DNA from: Candidatus Microgenomates bacterium
GTDB taxonomy: Bacteria; Patescibacteriota; Microgenomatia; Daviesbacterales; UBA10151
Direction of reading: 5' to 3'
Length of the DNA: 64,000 bases
NCBI GenBank assembly: GCA_016182045.1
Contig: JACOYE010000008.1
Location: 502 to 64,501 of the forward strand
Positions 5,798 to 37,695 of this stretch are shown here, one piece after another. Numbering within the stretch: position 1 is the first letter of the stretch; every line of letters begins with the position of its first letter. The position numbers were made by a program, and so were the translations under genes. The notes beneath the pieces were generated by a model, which searched no databases, had not been told where the DNA came from, and saw only the letters and a program-made list of their open reading frames with translations.

Positions 5798-6940
5798 TTA
5801 CTCTATTATTTCAATATTGGCAGATGGCATCTGTATTTTTCTGGATTTTGTCTCCACAGTCACCAGAAAGTCCTCTAACCCGGAGGCAAGTTGGGTCTTA
5901 GACCCATTTATTGAAATAATTTTACCTTGTCCTCCTCTATATAAGGAGCCGACAAATCTTACTTTCTGGTCCCCCTTAACCTCCTCCGAATCCGGTTGAG
6001 CCGGATTTGCATAGGTAGTAAAATCCACCATTTTAGGTAAACTGGTACTCCTAATCTTTTTCATACTGCTTGAGCTAAATGAGGGCAAATTTATTATCCC
6101 CCGATTACCGTCTAAGGTGACAAATTTTTCATCAAACTCCAACAAAATCTGGTATATATCCTCCCCTATTGGTATTGATCCAAAGCCCTCGCAAGCCACG
6201 ATGGTAATACCTATATCACTTTCTAATTTACGAGGAAAGATTAGTCTTCCTCCTGCCATGCCTCTAAAATCTTGGGCATTCAGCCCTCCGGTGATTATAC
6301 CATGAATACCCGCCGATATGGCATCTTCTATAGCCTCTTTAAAGACTATACTTCCACCAAGCAAAATATGTTCCGTATCCTTAACTGAAATTTTTGATGA
6401 GCTGATCAAATCTTCTCTTCCGCCTATTTTTCTTAGTATGCCGTCTCTCACTCTTCCGGTTCCCACCAGACCGTAAACTCTGGTAACTTGTGTTCTAATT
6501 GAAACAGCACCTCTTTTTTCATCTACCCCATCAACTACCCCATAAACTCCTGCTACCAGATTCACCCTCTTGGGTAGAAAACTCATTCTAACTTCTCCGC
6601 TATTTATGTTAAAAAAATCTAAAATTCCATCGGTGGGAGAAACCACCACCTTTTTTGAAGAAAACAGTCCACCTTCTTTATAAGCCAAAAGTTCTCCTTT
6701 GTAGATCTTTTGACCCAAACCAACTTTGAGGTATTTTTTGACGTCTTTAGGGGTGACTGAAAGTTGAGATGCCAAATTTATGGTTCTAAAACCCGATGAA
6801 ACTATGGCAGAACCGATAATCTCCGCCGGTGTGAGTTCCTGACCAACTTGTATGTTTAAACTACCCTGGCCTGGTAAGTTTCTAAAAATTCTGGTAATGA
6901 TATCTTTTTCAAAACGTAATCTTTTGGGCGCATAAAGCAT
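5798..6940 (-). CDS. hypothetical protein (380 aa), translationally coupled to the upstream 223-aa ORF
   Basis: Long ORF with no motif I can assign. It shares the ATGA overlap at 6940 with the upstream gene. Confidence 0.55.
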   Translation of the reverse strand: MLYAPKRLRFEKDIITRIFRNLPGQGSLNIQVGQELTPAEIIGSAIVSSGFRTINLASQLSVTPKDVKKYLKVGLGQKIYKGELLAYKEGGLFSSKKVVVSPTDGILDFFNINSGEVRMSFLPKRVNLVAGVYGVVDGVDEKRGAVSIRTQVTRVYGLVGTGRVRDGILRKIGGREDLISSSKISVKDTEHILLGGSIVFKEAIEDAISAGIHGIITGGLNAQDFRGMAGGRLIFPRKLESDIGITIVACEGFGSIPIGEDIYQILLEFDEKFVTLDGNRGIINLPSFSSSSMKKIRSTSLPKMVDFTTYANPAQPDSEEVKGDQKVRFVGSLYRGGQGKIISINGSKTQLASGLEDFLVTVETKSRKIQMPSANIEIIE

Positions 6941-7611
6941 TAAATAACCCTCCCATCAATTACCAACCCCAATCTTCCGCCATAAATCTGAAGCTGACTC
7001 ATCTTTTGACCTAAAATTTTTCCTCGATCAAGCTTAAAGGCTATCTCGCAACGGTTTTTTGGACAGGGTACCACTACTAAGCTACCAGGTTTAATTTTGA
7101 ATGTTTTCCCTTCTACCTGAAGCTGCATGATGGCTTTACTGTCATCAAATTGCGGCAAAAGTATTGAACCTACCACTTCATCCAAATCATCTGTCAAAAC
7201 TACGGTCCAAAGATCTGCAAACCAGTCTTCTTTTTGACGATCAAGAAGAAGTGCATCAACAAATACCCAGACACAAGTTATCAAATCAGGGCAGTATTTC
7301 AAAAATTTTGCAGGAATCAATAGCTTACGAAGAGTGATATTTAAAAAGGGATTGTCGCCCAAAAGATTATTGCCCCCTTTTATGACCCCTCCCCATGGTC
7401 CATTTAACCTGACTGCCTCACGCAAGATGGCCAGATCTATTTGCATATCAAGTTGTGACACGGCAATTGTTTGTGGGTATAAGATTCTGTTGGCCAGATA
7501 ATTTTCCATCTGATGAGGTTGCATCGGGGTCTTAATCCATCTGGCTATATTTTCTATAGGGATTTGATCAAGATTATCAAAGCTATCAAAAAGACCGGAC
7601 AGTTTGGGCAT
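6940..7611 (-). CDS. hypothetical protein (223 aa)
   Basis: Long ORF directly downstream of rpsR; no recognisable motif. Confidence 0.55.
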   Translation of the reverse strand: MPKLSGLFDSFDNLDQIPIENIARWIKTPMQPHQMENYLANRILYPQTIAVSQLDMQIDLAILREAVRLNGPWGGVIKGGNNLLGDNPFLNITLRKLLIPAKFLKYCPDLITCVWVFVDALLLDRQKEDWFADLWTVVLTDDLDEVVGSILLPQFDDSKAIMQLQVEGKTFKIKPGSLVVVPCPKNRCEIAFKLDRGKILGQKMSQLQIYGGRLGLVIDGRVI

Positions 7612-7623
7612 GGTTTAATTCTA

Positions 7624-7923
7624 CTAAACATTTGGGGTGAATGGAAGTAAGGCCAGGTGACGAGCATATTTTATCTGTCTTGTCAAAAAACGCTGATGCT
7701 TACTACAAAGCCCGCTTCTGATTTTGGGTAGGATTTTTGCTCTGTCAGTTAAAAACCGGCGTAGGGTCACCACATCAGTAAAGATGGGTATACTCTTTTG
7801 CTGACAAAAATAACACCTTTTTTTCTTGACAGGCAAATCTCCTGTTGGTGGGTTTACTTGGGGAGATTCCTCTGCTTTAGACTCCTTATTGGAAATTTTC
7901 TTTTTTACTACCTTTTTAACCAT
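7624..7923 (-). CDS. rpsR: 30S ribosomal protein S18
   Basis: CYFC...VVTLRRFLTDRAKILP...RHLALLPF matches the S18 consensus. Confidence 0.85.
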   Translation of the reverse strand: MVKKVVKKKISNKESKAEESPQVNPPTGDLPVKKKRCYFCQQKSIPIFTDVVTLRRFLTDRAKILPKIRSGLCSKHQRFLTRQIKYARHLALLPFTPNV

Positions 7924-7982
7924 GAGGAAGATTATACAGTGTGGGTCTTAGAAGGGCAAGTCCTCATCAGTTACTTCCTCTT

Positions 7983-9005
7983 TTACTCTATACCAACTAA
8001 ATATTTTTCTTTAAGGGCTTGGAGACTTGGAAAAGCATTTTGTCTCTTAATTCCTTTAAGGAGCTTCGCAGCATGTTCTACTTTTTCAGAAGGGAATCTA
8101 CCACTTTTTTCTACATACTCTTTAAATTGGGTATCAATTAAGCCTGAATGCGGATGATTGTCGCTTTGATAATTAACAGCGGCATGGAAATTATCAGACA
8201 AATGAGCATAAACCTCTTGAAAAACATCAGGATTGTGTTGTTCCAGAAAAACAAGTGCCTCTATTATTCTTCGTTGATGATGTAATAATGCCCCAGGCCC
8301 TCCTTCAACCACATAATCCAAATTTGTAGTCAATAGTTGTGGTATTAAAATACCAAGATCACTTGATAACTCAGTGGGCTGAATAATACTTAATCCCTGG
8401 ATATTCTGTACTAAATTTTCAGTATTAAATACTAAAGCTTCAGATACAATAAATCTTCTCTCTATATCCTTCTCTTCAAAAGAAGTTAAGGGTAAACCTT
8501 GTTCGGATCTGTATCTGTTCATACGTTCCCTATATGCTTGCATAAAACCTCTTGTCTCATCATAAAATTTTACTAACTTTGGGTCAGCTTTAAAGCGTCT
8601 TGCAAACCAGTATCTAAACGGAATATGCGAAGGATGAAATTCTTCAGAGGTTAGGGTAATTTCTTCAAACTCCCTATGTATTGGATTACCAGCAGATCTT
8701 TCTGCTAAACTACTATCGAATACAAGTATAAAATCAAAATCTGATCCTACACGGGCTGTACCACGCAAAAGCGACCCAACAGGGAATATCATTCCTTTTC
8801 TTTCTTTAAATTGCTCGATTATCTTAGGAGGAGACTCTTGATGTAACACTTCTCCGAAGTATTGGTGAAATCCCTCTAAAATTCCTACAGTAAACTCTGA
8901 TCTTGCTTCAGGCTTTCTTAAAGTGTTTATTACCTTATTAACCTGTCCTGCTTCGGGTGTATCTTCCATACAATGAGTATACCGAACTTTAGATCTTAAC
9001 ACCAA
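7983..9005 (-). CDS. pol-beta superfamily nucleotidyltransferase-fold protein (340 aa) of unknown function
   Basis: Minimal NTase motif GS-x10-DxD (GSLLRGTARVGSDFDFILVFD), a candidate third acidic residue about 55 aa downstream, and a ~200 aa helical C-terminal region. Confidence 0.55.
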   Translation of the reverse strand: MVLRSKVRYTHCMEDTPEAGQVNKVINTLRKPEARSEFTVGILEGFHQYFGEVLHQESPPKIIEQFKERKGMIFPVGSLLRGTARVGSDFDFILVFDSSLAERSAGNPIHREFEEITLTSEEFHPSHIPFRYWFARRFKADPKLVKFYDETRGFMQAYRERMNRYRSEQGLPLTSFEEKDIERRFIVSEALVFNTENLVQNIQGLSIIQPTELSSDLGILIPQLLTTNLDYVVEGGPGALLHHQRRIIEALVFLEQHNPDVFQEVYAHLSDNFHAAVNYQSDNHPHSGLIDTQFKEYVEKSGRFPSEKVEHAAKLLKGIKRQNAFPSLQALKEKYLVGIE

Positions 9006-9034: not shown

Positions 9035-9610
9035 TTAGAAGGGCAAGTCCTCATCAGGAGAAACATTTTCAGAGGGAGGCTCTTCTGCTTTTGTACTCTT
9101 TTTTCCCTCCTCCTTTTCTTCTTTCTTCTCCTTGGAAGCTTCAGCGGAGGATGATTCTTCCTCGTCGGTCTTGGGACTGGATTTTGTTTGAGGCGTTGAT
9201 GTTGTTGAGGCAGCAGGAGCAGCTGGCAACTCTCCCAAAGCTACCTCTTCTCTTTGAGCAACCACTTCGCCATTTCCCTTAGGAGTTAAAAGAATCATAT
9301 CCTCTATTACAATCTCGGTAGTTTGTCTTTGGATACCATCTTGTCCCTCCCAGGAGCGGGTTTGCAGTCTGCCGGAAATAAAAACACGGTGACCCTTTTT
9401 AAGAAGTTGATTGCAAAGTTCTGCCAATTTATTCCAGGCCACTAACTTGTGAAAATCAACTTCTTCTTTTCTCTCTCCTTCTGAAACATAAGTGCGGTTG
9501 GTAGCAACACCAAAAGTACAAACTGCAGCGCCATTGGGGGTAAAACGTAATTCTGGATCTCTTGTCAGATTACCTATTAACTCAACCCTATTCCATGATC
9601 TGGACGCCAT
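9035..9610 (-). CDS. ssb: single-stranded DNA-binding protein
   Basis: OB-fold N-terminus (NRVELIGNLTRDPELRFTPNGAAVCTFGVATNR), an acidic tail ending DEDLPF, and a Gly/Ser/Glu/Lys-rich linker. Confidence 0.9.
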   Translation of the reverse strand: MASRSWNRVELIGNLTRDPELRFTPNGAAVCTFGVATNRTYVSEGERKEEVDFHKLVAWNKLAELCNQLLKKGHRVFISGRLQTRSWEGQDGIQRQTTEIVIEDMILLTPKGNGEVVAQREEVALGELPAAPAASTTSTPQTKSSPKTDEEESSSAEASKEKKEEKEEGKKSTKAEEPPSENVSPDEDLPF

Positions 9611-9696: not shown

Positions 9697-9730
9697 ACTC
9701 CGTTATCTTCTAATTAGAAGATAACGGAGT
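9697..9730 (-). terminator. perfect 15-bp hairpin (ACTCCGTTATCTTCT-AATT-AGAAGATAACGGAGT) overlapping the rpsF stop codon, followed by a T-rich stretch on the minus strand; possible attenuator between rpsF and ssb
   Basis: The inverted repeat is visible in the sequence, and downstream on the minus strand is TTGAAATTTAAAATTTTAAATTTTC. Confidence 0.4.
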
Positions 9731-9984
9731 ACATCTTCCTCTACTTTTAGAAGTTTGTCAAGACCTTTGGCACTTTTAGGCTCAGCATTAATCTCAAAAT
9801 GGGCATAAAAACCCTTGGCTTGTCTTTTGATTGGATATGCCAGATCTCTGATCCCCCAAAGATCTTCTTTTTCTACCTTGCCATCATCACCGGTTAGTTT
9901 TTTTACCACATTATCCACCAATACTTTGCGCTCCTTTTCCTCCAAATCCGGCTTTAAAACTAATGTTAAATAATATGAATTCAT
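9703..9984 (-). CDS. rpsF: 30S ribosomal protein S6
   Basis: MNSYYLTLVLKPDLEEKERKVLVDNVVKKL... fits the S6 fold. Confidence 0.85.
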   Translation of the reverse strand: MNSYYLTLVLKPDLEEKERKVLVDNVVKKLTGDDGKVEKEDLWGIRDLAYPIKRQAKGFYAHFEINAEPKSAKGLDKLLKVEEDVLRYLLIRR

Positions 9985-10027: not shown

Positions 10028-11074
10028 CTAACCAGCAAGACTTAATTGTTTTCCAACGTAAGCATATTGTCCACGTTCATCAGGCTCAACTAACTTGGCA
10101 GCTTCCTCCATAAGATAAGTATTTGAATCTACTATATTTTCTTTCCAATCAGTGCCCACTTTTTTAGCCATATCCTCGCCAGTAATACCTTTTCCAAGTC
10201 TAGTAGTAACAATCACTCTTCTAAATCCAAAAGGTCTTAAAATAGATGAGGCTAAATCATATAATGAAATAACTCCCTCTGGTGTAGGTCGATAAGAATC
10301 AGGATCTTGTAGTTCATAAGCTTGACTTATTCCAAAAGGCTGGAAATAAGGCTCCCTTTTTTGGGCAATTGTCATCATTTTATACATATCATATAGATCT
10401 TCTATCGGTGTTCTATCTCTTGGGTCATATAACTCTAACAATCCGTTAATCTCATCCTTGCCGCCGCCAACCTTGTGACGTCCAGCTTGTATGCTTCCAT
10501 AAGGAAATACTATGGCTGCAGTTCCTTTTGGTTTTAAACTAGTACGTAAAAGGTGTAATTTAGGTGGCATACCATATAGAGTAACATCCTTTCTCCTAAC
10601 TACTTCAACTAAAGTAGTATTATTCTTCTGGGCATATCTTTCTAAATAAGGATACATTTTTGCCATAAAAGCATCTTGTTTACCATTTGAAACAGAAGCG
10701 GCAACAGTCACAATAGCCCTTTGTAAGTTTTCTTCTAATCCAATCTCAGCTGCTACACTGCGCATTTCAGCAAATCCATCAGTTGCCAAAGCTGCTTCAA
10801 GATGTACAAAATGACCAGCATACATCATTGGAATTAATCCTTCCCTTGTATAAGCTATAAAAGTAGAACGGGCCTCAGGTGTGGACCAGTTTACCCTCTT
10901 TAATCTGGGAAGTCTTTCTAGAACCTGTTCTCCAAACCTATCTATTACACCAGTTCTGGCAATTTGGTGAAAAGCCCATTGTCCTACTGCTTTTAGTTTC
11001 CTGCTTTTTTCTAATTCTAAATTTTGATTAGCAGTATCTATAAATTGTCTTAATTGTTCTAATTCGATAGCCAT
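10028..11074 (-). CDS. hypothetical protein (348 aa)
   Basis: Long ORF. No confident motif match. Confidence 0.5.
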   Translation of the reverse strand: MAIELEQLRQFIDTANQNLELEKSRKLKAVGQWAFHQIARTGVIDRFGEQVLERLPRLKRVNWSTPEARSTFIAYTREGLIPMMYAGHFVHLEAALATDGFAEMRSVAAEIGLEENLQRAIVTVAASVSNGKQDAFMAKMYPYLERYAQKNNTTLVEVVRRKDVTLYGMPPKLHLLRTSLKPKGTAAIVFPYGSIQAGRHKVGGGKDEINGLLELYDPRDRTPIEDLYDMYKMMTIAQKREPYFQPFGISQAYELQDPDSYRPTPEGVISLYDLASSILRPFGFRRVIVTTRLGKGITGEDMAKKVGTDWKENIVDSNTYLMEEAAKLVEPDERGQYAYVGKQLSLAG

Positions 11075-30514: not shown

Positions 30515-30537
30515 TATTTATTTTAACAGAAATATTA

Positions 30538-30579
30538 AATTATTCCCATTCCATAGTGGCTGGGGGGTTTGGTGAATTA
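30538..30579 (-). repeat. decayed copy A of the guaA 3' end (on the minus strand it would encode ...SPNPPATMEWE*)
   Basis: About 85% identical over 38 nt to the true guaA 3' end at 31864-31900. Confidence 0.6.
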
Positions 30580-30665
30580 AGTTATTACTTTCAAATTTGG
30601 GATATGATCAAAGTGCTTTTTAACCTGGATTTTTTCCTTGCAGGAAATCTATAATTACATCTGAA

Positions 30666-30947
30666 TCAAGGAGATATTGCATGTTTGTGAGGTAGCAACT
30701 TCATACTTTCTCTTAATTTTCTTGCTTCCTTTGCAATTAAATCGCCCTCTTTTCCCCTCCAGATTCCAGCCCATTTTAAAGGGTTCCTTTTTTTATTTAT
30801 TTTATCTTTTTCTTCTTTAACTGAAACTAATTTAACCATAGGTTTCCCCATTTTCTCGATAACAACTGTATCTCCCTTATAGTAAACTAAATTTAATAGC
30901 TCTCCTAATCTTGTTCTTGCTTCATACGCTGAAACCGTTTTTGTCAT
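30666..30947 (-). CDS. Phd/YefM-family antitoxin (orphan; no cognate toxin ORF downstream)
   Basis: TVSAYEARTRLGELLNLVYYKGDTVVIEKMGKPMVKLVSV matches the Phd/YefM N-terminal fold. Confidence 0.6.
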   Translation of the reverse strand: MTKTVSAYEARTRLGELLNLVYYKGDTVVIEKMGKPMVKLVSVKEEKDKINKKRNPLKWAGIWRGKEGDLIAKEARKLRESMKLLPHKHAISP

Positions 30948-31014
30948 AATTAAACAAATTGTATAAATTGATTAACTTGATTAAATCATTATTACTCAGG
31001 TATGTCAAGTACTA

Positions 31015-31049
31015 CTCCCACTCCATAGTGGCCGGGGGTTTGATGGTAA
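31015..31049 (-). repeat. decayed copy B of the guaA 3' end (would encode ...ITIKPPATMEWE*)
   Basis: CTCCCACTCCATAGTGGCCGGGGGTTTGATGGTAAT aligns to the guaA terminus. It abuts the vapC stop. Confidence 0.6.
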
Positions 31050-31442
31050 TTAATAATTCTGATAGAACTTTTGTAAGTTTTCATCAAAGGTTAAAAATTC
31101 ATCAGGTTTAATTCTTTGTAACTGGGCGGCAATCACTGAATCAGTAAACTTAATATTGACCATTTTAAATATATTAACTGCTTGCTGCATATCTGGTTTA
31201 TTTTCAAGGATTATCCCATCCAGGGCCAGTAGTTCTTGAAAAAAATCTATAATATTTTCCTTTGGTTCCTTATAAAAAGATCTGAGGACCCATTCAACTT
31301 CCGGAAATACTACTTGAGGAATAAAAATCTGTATCTTTCCATTTGTGCAATCCGCAAATAGTTTCTTCACCACATTGAATCTGGGATGTCTTTTTAACTT
31401 AAAGTCCAATAATACATTTGTATCTATGGCTACAATTTTCAT
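31050..31442 (-). CDS. vapC: PIN-domain toxin (VapC family)
   Basis: MKIVAIDTNVLLD... with conserved PIN acidic residues; 4-nt overlap with the upstream antitoxin gene. Confidence 0.75.
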   Translation of the reverse strand: MKIVAIDTNVLLDFKLKRHPRFNVVKKLFADCTNGKIQIFIPQVVFPEVEWVLRSFYKEPKENIIDFFQELLALDGIILENKPDMQQAVNIFKMVNIKFTDSVIAAQLQRIKPDEFLTFDENLQKFYQNY

Positions 31443-31753
31443 TTCTTGAATTTAATACGATATAATTTGGCGTTTTTACGTTGAGTTAATTTATCATAAT
31501 CAGAAACCAGTTCTTGTGCAGCCAACCTCTCTGTTTCCTCTCTAATCTCTTTCCAGGATCTACCATCATCTAAATGAGCTAAACTGCCTGCAAATTTCAT
31601 AATATTAGATTTTCTCCTGGGTCTGCCTACAAAACTACCATCTGGTATGGGGAAAATATCAATTTTAGTTCCTTTTTTTAAACCCAGTCTTTCTCTAACG
31701 GGTTTAGGGATAGTAATTTGAGCTTTAGAAGTGAGAGTCGTAGTTAGATTCAT
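31439..31753 (-). CDS. vapB: AbrB/MazE/SpoVT-type swapped-hairpin antitoxin (VapB-like)
   Basis: SKAQITIPKPVRERLGLKKGTKIDI matches the AbrB-fold DNA-binding domain. Confidence 0.7.
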   Translation of the reverse strand: MNLTTTLTSKAQITIPKPVRERLGLKKGTKIDIFPIPDGSFVGRPRRKSNIMKFAGSLAHLDDGRSWKEIREETERLAAQELVSDYDKLTQRKNAKLYRIKFKK

Positions 31754-31774
31754 ATGGATTTATTATAGCATATC

Positions 31775-31843
31775 TTACTTTCGCAAGAAAGAGTTTACTT
31801 TTTTGTCAACCTCCTTACTTTCGTAAGAAAGAGAATACTTTTC
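31775..31843 (-). promoter_or_regulatory. two 29-bp direct repeats (CTTACTTTCG[C/T]AAGAAAGAG..TACTTTT), each holding a CTTTC-GNAA-GAAAG hairpin, overlapping a TGcTATAAT -10 box upstream of vapB; putative operator
   Basis: DR1 is at 31775-31803 and DR2 at 31815-31843. On the minus strand TATAAT lies about 9 nt upstream of the vapB ATG. Confidence 0.4.
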
Positions 31844-31863
31844 AATATAAAGTAGGGCTAGTT

Positions 31864-33381
31864 TTATTCCCATTCCATTGTTGCCGGGGGTTTGGTGGTG
31901 ATGTCATAAACTACCCGGGAAACTCCTGGGACTTCATTAACTATTCTGGATGAGATTTTCTGCAAAATCTCATACGGCAGTTTAGACCAGACAGTTGTCA
32001 TCACATCTTTGGACTCAATAATTCTTACTGCCATAACTTCTAAGTGGGCCCGCTCATCCCCTTTGACAGCCGTACTTTTGGTATTTGTTAAAATTGCAAA
32101 ACTCATATAAACTTTGCCATAAAGCTCGGCTTTTTTGATTTCCTCTAAAACAACTGCATCTGCCTGTTGCTGTCTTTCCAAACGCTCCTTTGTTACCTCC
32201 CCAATAATCCTGATTGCTTGACCCGGACCTGGAAAAACTTGTTTGAAGACAACTTCTTTTGGTAACCCCAATTTTTCTCCAATTAACCTAACTTCATCTT
32301 TATAAAAATCCCGCAAGGGCTCAAGAAGTTCCAAGTTCATCTCATCAGGCAATCCCCCCACATTATGATGCGATTTAATCTTATCTGCTTTTTTGGTCCC
32401 TTTACTTTCAATCACATCAGAATAAATTGTTCCCTGGGCCAAAAACTTTACCCCTTTTAACTTTTTTGCTTCTCTTTCAAATAATTCTATATAGATTTTG
32501 CCAATGGTTTTTCTTTTTTCCTCCGGATCCGTAATACCTTTGAGGGCTGAAAGAAATTCCTTCTCTGCCTCAACAATGATCGGGGTAATTTTTAAATGTT
32601 TTTGGAAAATTTGTAAAACTTCCTCTTTAGTTCCTACCCTCATCAGTCCGCTTTCAATATAAATGGGATATAAATTTTTGCCAATGGCTTTTCCAATAAG
32701 AGTTGCTGCGACAGTTGAGTCAACACCTCCAGAAACAGCACAGATAATTTTGTTATTTCCCACCCTTTCTTTGATATCTTTAATAACCTTTTTAATATCA
32801 ATCTTTTTTTTGGAAATCTTAAGTCCGCAAATATTTTGGGCAAAGTTTATCAGTATTTCGTTACCAAAAACAGTATGATCTACCTCAGGATGAAACTGGA
32901 CCCCAAAAATCTTTTTGTCTAAATTTGCTACAGCTGCTGCTTTAACATTTTCAGTACTTCCCAAATATGTAAACCCTTTAGGAATAGTTACTACGCTGTC
33001 ACCATGACTGACCCAGACAATGGAATTATTCTCCACACCTTGTAGGATAATTCCTTCATTTATGATATTAAGATTTGCCGGCCCATATTCTTTATGTCCC
33101 CCAACTACTTTCCCTCCTAAAAGATGGGCAGTCAGCTGCCAACCGTAACAAATACCAAGAATTGGAATTCCCAAACTAAAAATTTTTTTATCAATAGTAG
33201 GGGCGCCTTTTGCATAAACAGAAGCCGGCCCTCCGGAAAGAATAATCCCTTTTGGCTTAAACTTCTTAATCTCGGAAAGAGCATCTTCAGGCTGGATAAT
33301 AGTCACAGCAATGCCGTGATCCCGCAACCTTCTGCCAATCAAATGACAAGTTTGTGATCCAAAATCAACTATAATAATCAT
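31864..33381 (-). CDS. guaA: GMP synthase (glutamine-hydrolysing)
   Basis: N-terminal GATase (IIIVDFGSQ...GICYG), ATP-PPase SGGVDSTV and C-terminal ...KPPATMEWE. Confidence 0.9.
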   Translation of the reverse strand: MIIIVDFGSQTCHLIGRRLRDHGIAVTIIQPEDALSEIKKFKPKGIILSGGPASVYAKGAPTIDKKIFSLGIPILGICYGWQLTAHLLGGKVVGGHKEYGPANLNIINEGIILQGVENNSIVWVSHGDSVVTIPKGFTYLGSTENVKAAAVANLDKKIFGVQFHPEVDHTVFGNEILINFAQNICGLKISKKKIDIKKVIKDIKERVGNNKIICAVSGGVDSTVAATLIGKAIGKNLYPIYIESGLMRVGTKEEVLQIFQKHLKITPIIVEAEKEFLSALKGITDPEEKRKTIGKIYIELFEREAKKLKGVKFLAQGTIYSDVIESKGTKKADKIKSHHNVGGLPDEMNLELLEPLRDFYKDEVRLIGEKLGLPKEVVFKQVFPGPGQAIRIIGEVTKERLERQQQADAVVLEEIKKAELYGKVYMSFAILTNTKSTAVKGDERAHLEVMAVRIIESKDVMTTVWSKLPYEILQKISSRIVNEVPGVSRVVYDITTKPPATMEWE

Positions 33382-34181
33382 TTTCCCTCCTTTGCAAACT
33401 TTATCATATCTTCAAATATAAAAGCTCCATGAGGTTTAATTATTTTCTCTCTTCTCCAGTTGGGGTATTGGGTAACATCAACAAACTTTTCCGGATGTGG
33501 CATCAATCCTAATACTCTTCCAGAAGGATCAGTCACTCCAGCGATAGCATTTAAAGATCCGTTTGGATTCTCAGGATATTTTTGTGTGGGATTGCCTTGC
33601 TCATCAACATACCTAAAAGTGACCAGATTCTCATCTTCAATTTTTTTAATAATTCCGGGACTAGAGAAAAATTTACCTTCTCCATGATTTACTGAAAACC
33701 AACCCACTTGATTATTTTCTTTTAAAAATACACAGTTACTTTTATTACTCTTTATTCTTACCCATCTGCATTCAAAATGTCCACTACTATTTGCGGCCAA
33801 AGTGGCATCCATTTTGCCTAAATTTCCAAAAGGCAAAAGCCCGGTTCTTATTAAAACCTGAAATCCATTACAGATTCCGATAATTAATCCCCCTCTTTTT
33901 CTAAAATTTTCTATTTCCTCTCTTAAAAAACTTACTAGCTCAATTGCCCAAATTTTTCCGGATGCCACATCATCTCCATAAGAAAATCCTCCAGGCAAAG
34001 CCAGAATATGAAAATCTTTCAGAGTTTTGGATTTGTTCCTTAACTCATTAACATGAACAAACTGTGGACTCCCCCCAAACTTTTTAAAAGCATAAAAAAG
34101 TTCATTATCACAATTAGTCCCATCAGATTGTAGTATACAAACATTTACTTCTCGCCCTGAGCGAAGTCGAAGGGTTTTCAT
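33378..34181 (-). CDS. purQ: phosphoribosylformylglycinamidine synthase glutaminase subunit (PurQ), with an 11-aa repeat-derived N-terminal insert
   Basis: GTNCDNE...LPGGFSYGDD class-I GATase. Residues 3-13 (TLRLRSGREVN) are encoded by a copy of the GC-rich repeat. Confidence 0.85.
   Translation of the reverse strand: MKTLRLRSGREVNVCILQSDGTNCDNELFYAFKKFGGSPQFVHVNELRNKSKTLKDFHILALPGGFSYGDDVASGKIWAIELVSFLREEIENFRKRGGLIIGICNGFQVLIRTGLLPFGNLGKMDATLAANSSGHFECRWVRIKSNKSNCVFLKENNQVGWFSVNHGEGKFFSSPGIIKKIEDENLVTFRYVDEQGNPTQKYPENPNGSLNAIAGVTDPSGRVLGLMPHPEKFVDVTQYPNWRREKIIKPHGAFIFEDMIKFAKEGK
34149..34175. repeat. GC-rich repeat copy (CTCGCCCTGAGCGAAGTCGAAGGGTTT) inserted in frame after codon 2 of purQ
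   Basis: Near-identical to the inner unit at 35891-35917 in purL; GC-rich relative to its flanks. Confidence 0.6.
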
Positions 34182-34825: not shown

Positions 34826-37695
34826 GGAAATATCTCTTTCATTGGCGCTTGCCAGGCTTGTTGTAATCTGTCCATATCAACTGTAAATAATCCATCAACC
34901 ACCAACTTCTCATCCTGTGTAGTTTTTCCTAATATTTTGTAAGGCACTCCTTCAAATAATTTTTTAGCAGTTGTCTCATTTTCAACTTCCATTACAAAAC
35001 ATCCAGCTGTTTCATTAAGAAGAAAACCACCTCGAAGGTGGGCTTTCTTGTCCCGAGCGAAGTCGAGGGAGACTCCTTCGAGGTGAAGCCGAACCCCACA
35101 ATTTCCGCCAACACACATTTCAAAAATGGTTGTAATCAGGCCTCCTTCTGAAACATCATGGCATGCTAATACTTTTCCACTAACAATTGCTTTGTGCACT
35201 TTATCCAAAACCTTCGGTAAAACTTTCAAATCAACTCTGGGGATGCTACTTTCCAAATCCTGCTTACCAACCAGTACAATTGTTGACCCAGCTTTTTTAA
35301 AATCAGAAGAAACAGTTTTTTTAACATCAGGAATTTTGCCAAATACAGACATGCAAAGTGTTGGAGGACTGTGTATCACCACCCCACTAGAGCCACGATA
35401 TGTGGCAGATAAACTGTCTTTGCCAGAAATCACCGGAATCTTTAAAGTCTTCATAAAATCACAAACAGCATCTACTGATCTATCAAGCGACCACAACCAT
35501 TCTTTATCAGGAAACGGCCAAATATAGTTATTAACCAGCGATGCATCTTTGTAATTACCACCAACTGCCACATAATTAGAAATTGCCTCAGTTGCAGACC
35601 AGACACTTCCCCAATATGGATCCATCATGCTAAATTCAGGATTTAATCCATGAGAAACAACCATTCCATAGGGTTTATCCAAAAGCGGCTTAATTACTGC
35701 TGCATCATTTGGCCCATCCATTCCCACCCCTGCAAAAGGATGCAAAGCATTTGTTCCCTGAACATTATGATCATACATCCTCAAAATTGGCTCTTTTGAA
35801 TTAATATTTCCATTAGCTAAAACTTTCTCTAAAACCTTCGCCCAAACCATTTTGTCATTCCGAGCGATTAGCGAGGAATCTCTCAACTTGCCCGCCCTGA
35901 GCGAGGCCGAAGGGTTTGAGATACTCACATTCGTCAGAGATTCTTCACTTCGTTCAGAATGACGAGGAGAGATAGCTCTCATCACCCTTTGTGGCAATCC
36001 TTCAAACAAAAAACTCATTTCCAAATCTCCCACTTTTTCTTTTCCATAAAATACCTGTAATCTTTTACTGCCGTCAAACTCTGCAATCTCTGAAGCCTGG
36101 ACATTATATTTTTGACATATCTTTAAAAATTCTTTCAGATTATCTTTTGAAAGAATTATTAACATTCTTTCTTGAGATTCTGAAAGGAAAATTTCCCAAG
36201 GAGCAAGTCCTTGATATTTCAAGGGTGCCTTTTCCAAATGAACAGTCGCTCCAGTTTTTACTCCCATCTCACCAATAGCAGATGAAAATCCACCAGCTCC
36301 CAAATCTTGAACTGCCCTTATTAAATCTTTATCCCGCGCTTCTAAAATTGCATCAAATACTCTTTTTTCCTCAATTGCATTTCCAATTTGCACAGCTTGG
36401 GAGTTAACTTCCATGGTTTTTTCACTCATCTCAGCAGAGGAAAAAGTGGCTCCGTGTATTCCATCTCTTCCCGTCCTTCCTCCGATAACCACCCCTACAT
36501 CACCAATTTTTGGATAGCCTTTTTTAGCTTTACTTTTAGGTAAAATTCCATATGATCCAACCAGTACAATTGGTTTGGCTCGAAAATCCTCATGAAAATG
36601 AAATGAACCATTATTTGTAGGTATCCCCACTCTATTGCCATAATCCCTAACAGCAGCCACTACTCTTTTTAACATATAGTCAGGAGGCAATGTCCCGGCA
36701 GGTAATTTACTTTTATCTAAATCATAAGGAGCAAGACAAAAAATATCTGTTGATACCAAACTTTTTGCGCCCTGGCCTGTTGCTACCACATCTCTAAAAA
36801 CTCCACCAGATCCAGTCATTGCCCCACCATATGGTTCTATTGCAGAGGGTGCATTATGAGTTTCTGCTTTTCCATTAATTGCCCAACCTTCATAAAAATC
36901 CATCACCCCTGCATTGTCCACAAACGCTGAGACAATATTTTTGTTATGTTTCAGCGCTTCCTTTTTAATTCTTTCAAAAAGCGGTGCCTTGTTTTTCCCA
37001 TCAACTAAAAGTCTTGCTTTAAAAGTTTTATGAGCACAATGTTCACTCCAAGTTTGGGCTAGAGTCTCAAGTTCTAAATCTGTGGGATCTCTTTTTATCT
37101 TTTGAAAATAATTTTGTATCACTTTCATCTCTTCTAAATTTAAAAACAACTTATCTTTTGAAAGTTCTAATAGCTGTTCATCATTGATCCGCCTTAGGCG
37201 GATAATATTCGTTTTTGCAGGAATGTCTTTGATAAGAAGAGTCTTTTGTTTCTCCTTCACAAAATGCTCAACCATTTCATTAAGAAGATGCAATTTCCTG
37301 GCAATATCCTCTATCTCTTGATGTGTTACTTTTCCATAAAAGCCATATTCATGAGAGGAGTCAGCTGCAATAAGTTTAATTCCCAAATCCTCTGCAGTTT
37401 TAAGAATTGACCCAACTTCTGGATTCATTACACCTGGTCTGTAAGCAATCTCTATAATCTGATTTGCTCCTTTTATTATTGGAGAGTTTAAAGTATATTC
37501 CTGATAAATACCTTCACAAAAAACTGTCTCCGCTAAAACTTTTGCCTCTCTCTCGCTTACACCTTCCAATCTATAAACTTTGGCAGTCTCCACTTTTGTG
37601 ATGTTTTTGATTCCCATCTGATAAATGTCATTTAAAACTCCCTCACCAATCAGGTCTTTTCCCATAACATTTTTTACTCTGATTATATGTATCAT
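34822..37695 (-). CDS. purL: phosphoribosylformylglycinamidine synthase large subunit (PurL) with a ~185-aa N-terminal extension of PurS-like modules and two repeat-derived in-frame inserts
   Basis: Core PurL motifs (WSEHCAHKTF, GGRTGRDGIHGATFSS, AIGEMG). The N-terminal region resembles PurS twice. Inserts lie at 35854-35963 and 35049-35095. Confidence 0.85.
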   Translation of the reverse strand: MIHIIRVKNVMGKDLIGEGVLNDIYQMGIKNITKVETAKVYRLEGVSEREAKVLAETVFCEGIYQEYTLNSPIIKGANQIIEIAYRPGVMNPEVGSILKTAEDLGIKLIAADSSHEYGFYGKVTHQEIEDIARKLHLLNEMVEHFVKEKQKTLLIKDIPAKTNIIRLRRINDEQLLELSKDKLFLNLEEMKVIQNYFQKIKRDPTDLELETLAQTWSEHCAHKTFKARLLVDGKNKAPLFERIKKEALKHNKNIVSAFVDNAGVMDFYEGWAINGKAETHNAPSAIEPYGGAMTGSGGVFRDVVATGQGAKSLVSTDIFCLAPYDLDKSKLPAGTLPPDYMLKRVVAAVRDYGNRVGIPTNNGSFHFHEDFRAKPIVLVGSYGILPKSKAKKGYPKIGDVGVVIGGRTGRDGIHGATFSSAEMSEKTMEVNSQAVQIGNAIEEKRVFDAILEARDKDLIRAVQDLGAGGFSSAIGEMGVKTGATVHLEKAPLKYQGLAPWEIFLSESQERMLIILSKDNLKEFLKICQKYNVQASEIAEFDGSKRLQVFYGKEKVGDLEMSFLFEGLPQRVMRAISPRHSERSEESLTNVSISNPSASLRAGKLRDSSLIARNDKMVWAKVLEKVLANGNINSKEPILRMYDHNVQGTNALHPFAGVGMDGPNDAAVIKPLLDKPYGMVVSHGLNPEFSMMDPYWGSVWSATEAISNYVAVGGNYKDASLVNNYIWPFPDKEWLWSLDRSVDAVCDFMKTLKIPVISGKDSLSATYRGSSGVVIHSPPTLCMSVFGKIPDVKKTVSSDFKKAGSTIVLVGKQDLESSIPRVDLKVLPKVLDKVHKAIVSGKVLACHDVSEGGLITTIFEMCVGGNCGVRLHLEGVSLDFARDKKAHLRGGFLLNETAGCFVMEVENETTAKKLFEGVPYKILGKTTQDEKLVVDGLFTVDMDRLQQAWQAPMKEIFP
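35049..35095. repeat. GC-rich repeat copy in frame near the PurL C-terminus (encodes ..GVRLHLEGVSLDFARDK..)
   Basis: TCCCGAGCGAAGTCGAGGGAGACTCCTTCGAGG; its core matches the 34149-34175 element. Confidence 0.5.
35854..35963. repeat. composite (nested) GC-rich palindromic element in frame in purL, adding about 37 aa (ISPRHSERSEESLTNVSISNPSASLRAGKLRDSSLIARNDK)
   Basis: Outer termini are GTCATTCCGAGCG...CGTTCAGAATGAC. The inner unit CGCCCTGAGCGAGGCCGAAGGGTTTG matches the purQ copy. Confidence 0.65.

Follow-up and report, generated by a model that had tools for sequence, protein, structure and literature searches.

A gene for a nucleotidyltransferase (NTase) of the Pol-beta superfamily has been inserted between ssb and rpsR in the window, the 64,000-nucleotide stretch of DNA that was analysed here, and the insertion is a true one and not an artefact. 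We consider it probable that the gene arrived recently as a 1,064-bp (1.06-kb) single-gene cassette, and that it encodes an accessory, mobile, stand-alone NTase that has its own promoter and whose insertion was accompanied by a long target duplication. The locus, from a Microgenomates (CPR) bacterium, offers a reconstructable, integrase-less insertion with a probable long target duplication, in which both the 23-nt repeat and the empty sites can be examined. It also illustrates that membership of a ribosomal-protein/SSB cluster is no guarantee of a shared function, the position of the NTase gene here being probably the scar of a recent insertion. The features of the region, in coordinates of the window, are as follows.

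9703..9984, minus strand: rpsF (ribosomal protein S6), upstream member of the cluster; Pfam Ribosomal_S6, E 4.8e-23
9035..9610, minus strand: ssb, 191 aa, C-terminus ...PDEDLPF followed by the stop codon; Pfam SSB, E 9e-36
9035..9057: direct-repeat copy 1, the final 23 nt of ssb with its stop codon (DEDLPF plus stop); minus-strand reading CTGATGAGGACTTGCCCTTCTAA
8970..9034, minus strand: 5' non-coding region of the cassette with promoter-like hexamers, read off the sequence
7983..8969, minus strand: NTase coding sequence, 328 aa, ATG at 8969; Pfam NTP_transf_2, 27 bits; same as NCBI MBI2039743.1
8733..8777, minus strand: NTase catalytic motif G77-S78-x10-D89-x-D91 in 340-aa numbering, equal to G65, S66, D77 and D79 in 328-aa numbering
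8439..8441, minus strand: putative third catalytic carboxylate, E189 (E177 in 328-aa numbering), predicted strand 175-182
7971..7982, minus strand: 3' non-coding stretch of the cassette, 12 nt (AAGAGGAAGTAA), from the NTase stop codon to repeat copy 2, read off the sequence
7948..7970: direct-repeat copy 2, non-coding duplicate of the ssb 3' end
7931..7959, minus strand: rpsR promoter-like site, TTGCCC-17-TATAAT, the best promoter-like match in the region (10/12)
7624..7923, minus strand: rpsR (ribosomal protein S18); Pfam Ribosomal_S18, E 5e-17

The Pfam matches confirmed the order rpsF, ssb, NTase reading frame, rpsR that an earlier note on this DNA had described, here on the minus strand. 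The view of that note that the NTase gene splits a pair that is normally contiguous is also supported. In five loci of the closest relatives, which were checked for the same insertion, ssb and rpsR are directly adjacent and the synteny is otherwise conserved. The nearest homologues of the window ssb belong to Ca. Daviesbacteria (68-70% identity); in the Daviesbacteria relatives the gap between ssb and rpsR is 23-60 nt, and the gene order on the rpsF side is likewise present in the relatives L022 and L026.

The NTase gene is bracketed by a perfect direct repeat (23/23; 7948-7970 and 9035-9057) with a spacing of 1087 nt, and the local-alignment score of this repeat is 46, compared with a maximum of 25 for shuffled sequence. 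Repeat copy 2, together with the sequence downstream of it, corresponds to the ssb-rpsR junction of the relatives, which carry a single repeat copy at an intact junction; the copy in L022 is identical at 19 of the 23 positions. When the cassette and one repeat copy are removed, the window reads ...GACTTGCCCTTCTAA, then GACCCACACTGTATAATCTTCCTC, then ATGG, and L022 at the same place reads ...GACTTGCCCTTCTAA, then GCTAAACACTATATAATTTCCCA, then ATGG. The empty-site junction predicted for the window is GTTTCTCCTGATGAGGACTTGCCCTTCTAAGACCCACACTG, and the junction of a circular form would be AAGAGGAAGTAACTGATGAGGACTTGCCCTTCTAATCTCTTTCATT. The stretch comprising ssb, the NTase gene, rpsR and both repeat copies is identical, with 0 mismatches, in three independently assembled source runs (SRR12113420, SRR12113424 and SRR12113430), and an assembly artefact was, therefore, rejected. 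The NTase gene is the sole open reading frame of the cassette, no recombinase lies in or beside it, and a search for terminal inverted repeats or conserved cassette ends found none.

These observations suggest that the cassette landed exactly at the ssb stop codon and that a 23-nt target stretch was duplicated in the process. Copy 1 of the repeat would then keep the tail and stop codon of ssb, and copy 2 would keep the −35 element of the rpsR promoter. Because such a duplication preserves both the SSB tail and the rpsR promoter, the two essential neighbours would stay functional.

The earlier note had described a protein of 340 aa. The open reading frame stands, but translation probably begins at the ATG at 8969, which gives 328 aa, and not at the TTG at 9005. 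We favor this start because the homologues begin with MEDTPE, because NCBI annotates 328 aa (MBI2039743.1) and because only 6 nt separate the −10-like hexamer TATACT from the ATG. The full upstream arrangement is TTGGTG (9005..9000), an 18-nt spacer, TATACT (8981..8976), 6 nt and the ATG, and GATATACTC is also found immediately upstream of the ATG in the homologues L004 and L001. At 20 of the 57 open reading frames of the window, the ATG is preceded at a distance of 4-11 nt (mode 6 nt) by a −10-like hexamer, compared with 5 of 57 controls. The NTase gene is probably expressed from its own −10 box, on a leaderless or short-leader transcript. Since the −35 hexamer is poor, with a match at only 3 of 6 positions, we regard the promoter as a putative one.

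Co-expression with replication and translation genes, which had been deduced from the position of the gene, finds no support in these results. The position is that of an insertion site, the contexts of the homologues are unrelated, the NTase gene has a −10-like box of its own in a placement common to many genes of the genome, and the downstream repeat copy restores the conserved promoter-like site of rpsR. In that site, the −35 falls within repeat copy 2, and 7 nt separate the −10 from the rpsR ATG; in L022, a TTGCCC...TATAAT arrangement likewise spans the end of ssb and the spacer. If the cassette is a recent insertion, as seems probable, then the location in a ribosomal-protein cluster informs on the mobility of the gene and not on its function.

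The insertion architecture was also seen at loci of homologues. In L003, whose NTase is 45% identical to that of the window, a bracketing repeat with 32 of 33 nt matching extends across the stop codon of the upstream gene, which encodes a UvrD-type helicase (spacing 1107 nt), and in L017 (52% identical) the repeat is degenerate, about 40 nt long and spaced at 1057 nt. Flanking repeats were absent in L001/L013, L014, L015 and L019/L020, in a test that left out L006, L007 and L008. The neighbours differ at every homologue locus (FtsJ, an ABC ATPase, tRNA-Leu, RelB/YafQ, IS110/IS30, and a serine recombinase with tRNA-Pro), and homologues elsewhere are never next to ssb or rpsR. Sequence similarity to the 73%-identical homologue ends at the ends of the open reading frame. 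In a separate part of the same window, toxin-antitoxin (TA) modules lie between copies of the 3' end of guaA, and the two remnant copies agree with each other at bases where the functional guaA copy differs.

The NTase core of the GS-x10-DxD type reported earlier is intact, with the motif GSLLRGTARVGSDFDFILVFD at residues 77-97 of the 340-aa reading. The sequence agrees with the superfamily pattern hG[GS]-x9-13-Dh[DE]h, and the match to Pfam NTP_transf_2 (PF01909) reaches 27 bits, above the curated cut-off of 21; the same profile matches 25 of 33 family members, and NTP_transf_2 and Polbeta are the only Pfam families found. The G, the S and both D residues of the motif are invariant in all 32 aligned members, and 26 of 31 aligned members have an acidic residue, E or D, at a third position (E177 in the 328-aa numbering). 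By the pattern of the Pol-beta superfamily, E177 is the putative third catalytic carboxylate. As had been proposed, the protein is much larger than the minimal NTases and belongs to the Pol-beta superfamily with a conserved catalytic core, and a large helical C-terminal part is borne out in that the remainder outside the core is predicted to be mostly helical. The AlphaFold2 (AF2) model (pLDDT 84.5, pTM 0.83) has, in general layout, the NTase core first and a helical domain after it. The model and the family alignment both indicate that about 90 helical residues are inserted between the strand with DxD and that of the third carboxylate; in the predicted structure these residues interrupt the NTase core, and an orphan helical C-terminal domain comes after it. 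A profile of this C-terminal domain found nothing real in PDB and Pfam; a match to PPR repeats was rejected as an additive repeat artefact. In the reaction that this architecture suggests, D77, D79 and E177 (328-aa numbering) would bind two Mg2+ ions and an NTP, and the NMP would then be transferred to a hydroxyl of a substrate held by the helical domain.

The NTase family is under purifying selection, with a dN/dS of about 0.2 (0.20 for the window NTase and its 73%-identical homologue; 0.10-0.26 overall). The invariant motif, taken together with this selection, predicts a catalytically competent enzyme. With 36 clusters out of 1.84 billion representatives, the family forms a tiny and uncharacterised branch of the Pol-beta superfamily. 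Relatives were found neither in the 185,579 species-representative genomes of GTDB nor in IMG/VR, GenBank phages or PLSDB plasmids. Its conserved motifs are LRKPExR[ST] (N-terminal), HP, LLT..D..E, HQ, NP..F, SGRF and FP. The NTase of L015 carries a fusion to about 640 further residues, which gave no Pfam, PADLOC or PDB match and have no similarity to the 396-aa neighbour in L001; because these residues match nothing, the fusion provides no functional link. A very rare NTase family that is under selection and, judged by its sequence, catalytically intact is a clean target for enzymology.

Our leading guess for the function, a tentative one, is that the NTase is a modifier of the ANT/Lnu type acting on a small molecule, for instance an antibiotic or a toxin. 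The ANT enzymes (AadA, which is ANT(3'')(9); ANT(9); and KNTase, which is ANT(4')) are stand-alone, single-gene enzymes, as is the NTase, and ANT genes are typically mobile. Both have an N-terminal Pol-beta core with GS...DxD and a later acidic residue; in the ANT enzymes a helical domain follows, and the AF2 model of the NTase suggests the same general layout. The top Foldseek matches were AadA, ANT(9) and KNTase (5luh, 6sxj and 1kny), all non-significant, with E at least 0.056, a probability of at most 0.51 and a TM score of about 0.2 (0.22 for the best match). The NTase differs from the ANT enzymes in being about 70 residues longer, in having the LRKPExR[ST] motif of its own and the helical insertion of about 90 residues, and in the lack of a Pfam or NCBIfam ANT match. 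NCBIfam names the known resistance NTases, and the search of that collection with the NTase gave no match; likewise, the ANT C-terminal domain of Pfam was not detected.

A second guess, to which we give somewhat less credence, is that the enzyme modifies a protein or an RNA rather than a small molecule, as part of a selfish, defence or addiction module comparable to MntA, AbiEii/MenT or DrrA. At the sequence level, the closest core is that of the MNT/MntA antitoxins of HEPN-MNT modules (GSxxRGxxxxxSDxD), and these gave the best matches in the PDB profile search (1wot, E 2e-4; MntA 5yep, E 2e-3), which cover only the core of minimal NTases. PADLOC returned matches to PDC-S09, a candidate defence NTase, at E 0.005, but these are confined to the core and far below the useful threshold. 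The notion also gains from the fact that the same insertion architecture carries TA modules in the window, that the NTase of L017 adjoins RelB/YafQ and that the published precedent for such insertions, discussed below, consists of restriction-modification units. On the other hand, no conserved partner gene (HEPN, AbiEi or an effector) accompanies the family, and AbiEii and HEPN are not among the Pfam matches. HEPN was found neither among the neighbours nor by the profile of the C-terminal domain, and no locus contains a HEPN partner gene. The MNT antitoxin of the type VII HEPN-MNT system has about 100-150 aa, whereas the NTase, at 328 aa with extra conserved domains, is three times larger and shares a similarity of about 30 residues with it, which places it outside the size range of that class. 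PHROGs gave a generic 'nucleotidyltransferase' match to the core only, and single-sequence phmmer against PDB gave noise only.

How the cassette entered the genome can also be read in another way. The 3' ends of very conserved genes are typical targets of site-specific integrases, and one could envision that the two repeats are attL and attR, and that the NTase is the cargo of an integrative element, or of a decayed or cis-mobilisable remnant, served by a recombinase in trans. The element would carry a mimic of the 3' end of a conserved gene; alternatively, a small circle would have entered by Campbell-type recombination. We regard this as unlikely, although several observations fit. Integrative elements and cis-mobilisable remnants that enter conserved genes or tRNA genes at the 3' end leave their target intact by duplicating that end, as here; the repeats involve the 3' end of a highly conserved gene in both cases, ssb for the cassette and guaA for the TA modules of the window; the modules at guaA show serial accretion; and the guaA remnants jointly depart from the functional copy. 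Furthermore, L015 adjoins a large serine recombinase and tRNA-Pro, and other members lie by tRNA genes or IS elements. A search downstream of L014, L015 and L016 for attR sites made of tRNA fragments found none. What speaks against the proposal is that no sequence relationship links the repeats of the window, L003 and L017. Because no conserved non-coding end is shared between the cassettes, no common attP is visible, and, in contrast to integrative elements, the cassette has no integrase and the family members have no att sequence in common. The window repeat also reproduces the host's own synonymous codon choices at 23 of 23 positions, whereas the relatives differ at no fewer than 4 positions; the near-equal spacing at the three loci (1087, 1107 and 1057 nt) fits a gene-only unit better than random remnants; and no recombinase is present in or beside the window cassette.

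[quoted passage not shown] (2010; PMC2853133). In the latter paper, the inserts are restriction-modification units, the repeat cut-off is >30 bp and the examples have repeats of 46-423 bp. Those inserts and the cassette alike lack a mobility gene and terminal inverted repeats, have direct repeats far longer than transposon duplications and correspond to a single copy at the empty site in relatives. In addition, the repeats of the cassette include the end of the upstream coding sequence, a feature that the H. influenzae cases of that paper share. The cassette differs in carrying a single NTase gene instead of a restriction-modification pair and in having a CPR host. With respect to the >30-bp cut-off, the 23-nt repeat of the window is below it, the 33-nt repeat of L003 is above it, and that of L017, at about 40 nt, is degenerate. 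The second locus with its 33-nt repeat and the TA modules behind guaA would be further examples of long target duplication. A bolder extension, which we put forward as a long shot, is that the NTase is the cargo of a new class of minimal, integrase-less, single-gene CPR cassettes that spread by insertion just after the stop codons of conserved genes with target duplications of 20-50 nt, and that the guaA-bracketed TA modules move by the same route. In its strongest version, which belongs to the same long shot, the NTase itself would be the agent, either in its own insertion, by gap-filling or end-tailing, or as a stand-alone defence or addiction enzyme.

The resemblance to cGAS/DncV-like and OAS-like enzymes that the earlier note had seen in the layout found no support, and we consider it very unlikely that the NTase is a signalling enzyme of the CD-NTase (cGAS/DncV) or OAS type that makes a nucleotide second messenger. 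What the NTase has in common with the CD-NTases of CBASS, cGAS and OAS is the generic Pol-beta catalytic core, here GS-x10-DxD, a size of >300 aa, above that of the minimal enzymes, and helical regions. Matches to CdnC (6p80, E 0.07) and OAS2 (9h1z, E 0.55) in the PDB profile search cover only the core motif of about 30 residues, and the non-significant Foldseek matches include HalB, a defence NTase. There is, however, no Pfam or PADLOC match to CD-NTase, SMODS or OAS, and neither an OAS1_C domain nor an OAS profile was detected by Pfam; the best 50 Foldseek matches include no cGAS, DncV, OAS or CD-NTase structure; the core motif is most like the MNT type; and no effector, Cap or ancillary gene adjoins any family member at about 10 distinct loci.

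Least credible is a housekeeping factor co-transcribed with SSB and ribosomal proteins, for example in RNA tailing or replication, which would explain the shared strand, the tight spacing and the lack of a terminator-like site on the NTase strand between ssb and the NTase gene, but which is largely refuted by the empty sites, the gene being absent from the cluster in all closest relatives examined, flanked by a perfect target duplication, never beside ssb or rpsR in its homologues and a member of an extremely rare family. In agreement with this, Pfam, NCBIfam and the PDB profile search assigned the NTase to no housekeeping family (CCA-adding enzyme, GlnE/GlnD or PAP); PAP chains appeared in the PDB profile search at E 0.04-0.5, aligned over the N-terminal helix and the core only. 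An Rfam search of the region found no RNA family. The GC content of the cassette is 0.35-0.37, compared with 0.36-0.43 nearby, and a compositional anomaly was rejected since the cassette is not distinctive from its surroundings.

The gene order on the minus strand is rpsF, ssb, a nucleotidyltransferase (NTase) ORF and rpsR, with the following coordinates:

9703..9984, minus strand: rpsF (Pfam S6)
9035..9610, minus strand: ssb (Pfam SSB), protein ending in PDEDLPF before the stop codon
7983..9005, minus strand: NTase ORF (Pfam NTP_transf_2, GSLLRGTARVGSDFDFILVFD motif)
7624..7923, minus strand: rpsR (Pfam S18)

The ORF coordinates and the S6, SSB and S18 matches confirmed the location of the NTase ORF between ssb and rpsR that the earlier note had described, and because the ssb-NTase-rpsR sequence is identical, with 0 mismatches, in three run-level assemblies (SRR12113430, SRR12113424 and SRR12113420), the arrangement is real. 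The NTase assignment was also right, given that the NTP_transf_2 score is 27 bits (Pfam cut-off 21) and the quoted GSLLRGTARVGSDFDFILVFD motif is present. Translation likely starts at the ATG at 8969 (328 aa) rather than at the TTG at 9005, because the homologues begin with MEDTPE, the NCBI record MBI2039743.1 (Candidatus Microgenomates bacterium) is 328 aa long, and a −10-like TATACT ends 6 nt 5′ of this ATG.

A single-gene cassette was recently inserted here, and it encodes an orphan, catalytically intact Pol-beta-superfamily NTase. A perfect 23-nt direct repeat, overlooked previously, brackets the gene (7948-7970 and 9035-9057, spacing 1087 nt); it reads CTGATGAGGACTTGCCCTTCTAA on the coding strand and corresponds to the terminal 23 nt of ssb, stop codon included. 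It is the sole perfect long direct repeat within the 64-kb window, and its score is 46, compared with a maximum of 25 for shuffled flanks. In silico removal of the 1,064-bp insert and one repeat copy yields ...GACTTGCCCTTCTAA|GACCCACACTGTATAATCTTCCTC|ATGG, and the ssb|rpsR junction of a Daviesbacteria relative (L022) reads ...GACTTGCCCTTCTAA|GCTAAACACTATATAATTTCCCA|ATGG. The closest relatives, Ca. Daviesbacteria (SSB identity 68-70%), keep the whole neighbourhood (YchF, unknown gene, rpsF, ssb, rpsR, two unknown genes, CtpB) with ssb and rpsR 23-60 nt apart, which bears out the claim that the NTase interrupts a normally adjacent pair. Three ORFs of 380, 223 and 348 aa that flank the cluster on the minus strand (5798-7611 and 10028-11074) had no match in Pfam, NCBIfam, PADLOC or PHROGs; they are lineage-specific conserved unknowns, since they are syntenic in the Daviesbacteria relatives.

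The top promoter-like site of the region is TTGCCC-17-TATAAT (10/12 matches), of which the −35 element lies inside the ssb tail and the −10 element ends 7 nt 5′ of the rpsR ATG, an arrangement also kept in L022. Through the duplication, one repeat copy completes ssb and the other the putative rpsR promoter, which explains why an insertion between two essential genes is tolerated.

The NTase family is tiny. Among 5.8 billion sequences searched, 7 proteins were found, and 36 of 1.84 billion cluster representatives matched in a profile search at E<=1e-3; no member was detected in 185,579 species-representative genomes, IMG/VR, GenBank phages or PLSDB plasmids. The neighbours differ at every locus:

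L003: UvrD-type helicase, DUF433
L004: FtsJ, with a tRNA on the opposite strand
L008: ABC ATPase
L014: tRNA-Leu, DnaB
L017: RelB/YafQ, glycosyltransferase
L019: CTP synthase
L001/L013: IS110 upstream, IS30-type transposase downstream
L015: large serine recombinase and tRNA-Pro; here a 1007-aa fusion protein has the NTase as its N-terminal part

The L003 homologue (45% identical) is bracketed by a direct repeat (32/33 nt, spacing 1107 nt, score 61, highest shuffled score 37) that spans the helicase stop codon, and the L017 homologue (52% identical) has a degenerate repeat of ~40 nt with a spacing of 1057 nt and borderline significance. At the other loci repeats were absent or the flanks were too short for the test. 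The cassettes share neither conserved non-coding ends nor terminal inverted repeats, and similarity to the 73%-identical homologue ends at the ORF limits; the mobile unit is essentially the NTase gene alone.

Insertion with long target duplication, the more probable mode here, has been described for restriction-modification units, where the repeats can extend into the 3′ end of the preceding gene (PMC2853133). The main alternative is that a recombinase acted in trans and integrated the cassette into a conserved 3′ end by an att-type reaction. We consider this unlikely because the repeats of the window, L003 and L017 are unrelated in sequence, the cassettes have no common att sequence, and the window repeat fits the host's own synonymous codons at 23/23 positions, whereas the relatives differ. 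[quoted passage not shown]

The fusion in L015 (2421-5444, JGI Ga0233420_10002088) and L016 joins a family member to ~640 extra C-terminal residues, for which, in L015, no Pfam, PADLOC or PDB match was found; because a large serine recombinase and tRNA-Pro adjoin it, an integrative element may carry the L015 NTase as cargo. At the P0006 locus (L001 9091-9198, L013 7069-8058), a 44-nt imperfect tandem pair containing the tRNA T-arm-like TTCGAATC lies 3′ of the NTase and is followed by the IS30-type transposase gene, with the IS110 transposase upstream.

G65, S66, D77 and D79 (328-aa numbering) are invariant over 33 aligned members, and position 177 is acidic in 26 of 31. Also conserved are the motifs LRKPExR[ST] in the N-terminal part, HP, LLT..D..E, G.L.HQ, NP..F, SGRF and R.Q..FP. 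The dN/dS values of 0.10-0.26 against homologues (0.20 at dS 0.67 for the closest) indicate a functional gene that is under selection. An AF2 model from an 11-sequence alignment (pLDDT 84.5, pTM 0.83) predicts three helices at the N-terminus, two strands of the core, a ~90-residue helical insertion, the residue-177 strand and a helical C-terminal domain, in agreement with the helical C-terminal region proposed earlier.

The suggested resemblance to CD-NTase and OAS enzymes is not supported. Pfam matches were NTP_transf_2 and Polbeta only; NCBIfam gave no match, and PADLOC gave no CD-NTase match, only weak, core-limited PDC-S09 matches. In the PDB profile search, matches were confined to ~30 residues of the core (minimal NTase 1wot, E 2e-4; MntA, 2e-3), and CdnC (0.07) and OAS2 (0.55) were non-significant. 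The top Foldseek matches were AadA (E 0.056, probability 0.51, TM 0.22), ANT(9), HalB, DrrA and KNTase, with no cGAS, OAS or CD-NTase structure among the top 50, and the C-terminal domain searched alone had no match. The NTase would transfer NMP onto an acceptor. Our leading, though tentative, guess is small-molecule modification like that of antibiotic nucleotidyltransferases; a protein- or RNA-modifying role in defence or addiction seems somewhat less probable, and a signalling role is very improbable.

Co-expression with rpsF-ssb-rpsR, which had been implied, is not supported, the cassette being a recent insertion. The TATACT before the NTase ATG occurs without a Shine-Dalgarno-like motif, GATATACTC also precedes the ATG in the L004 and L001 homologues, and the −35 hexamer has 3/6 matches only; we infer a putative promoter of its own and a leaderless or short-leader mRNA. 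Of the 57 window ORFs that reach 120 aa, 20 have a −10-like hexamer (5 or more of 6 matches to TATAAT) ending 4-11 nt 5′ of the ATG (mode 6 nt), against 5/57 in an internal control, and just 9 have a Shine-Dalgarno-like motif, which suggests that leaderless or very-short-leader transcripts are widespread in this Microgenomates genome.

Downstream of guaA, the 3′ end of this gene occurs three times (30528-31902):

31864..33381, minus strand: guaA
31852-31902, minus strand: guaA 3′ end, functional copy (...KPPATMEWE, stop)
31000-31050: degenerate copy, after a MazE-type antitoxin (31439..31753) and PIN toxin (31050..31442)
30528-30578: degenerate copy, after a Phd/YefM antitoxin (30666..30947) and toxin remnant

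Apparently, two toxin-antitoxin modules were inserted successively behind guaA, each bracketed by copies of its 3′ end, as the NTase cassette is behind ssb. Small selfish modules behind housekeeping genes, between 3′-end copies, are recurrent in this genome, which supports the NTase as accessory cargo of a like kind. The GC-rich repeat CGCCCTGAGCGAAGTCGAAGGGTTT is present in three copies (68-100% identity; 34153-34177, 35049-35073 and 35893-35917), which lie within purQ and purL or at the limits of these coding regions. It has the appearance of a repetitive element that these purine-biosynthesis genes tolerate in frame, and one copy in PurL translates as ...SPRHSERSEESL...SLRAGKLRDSS...
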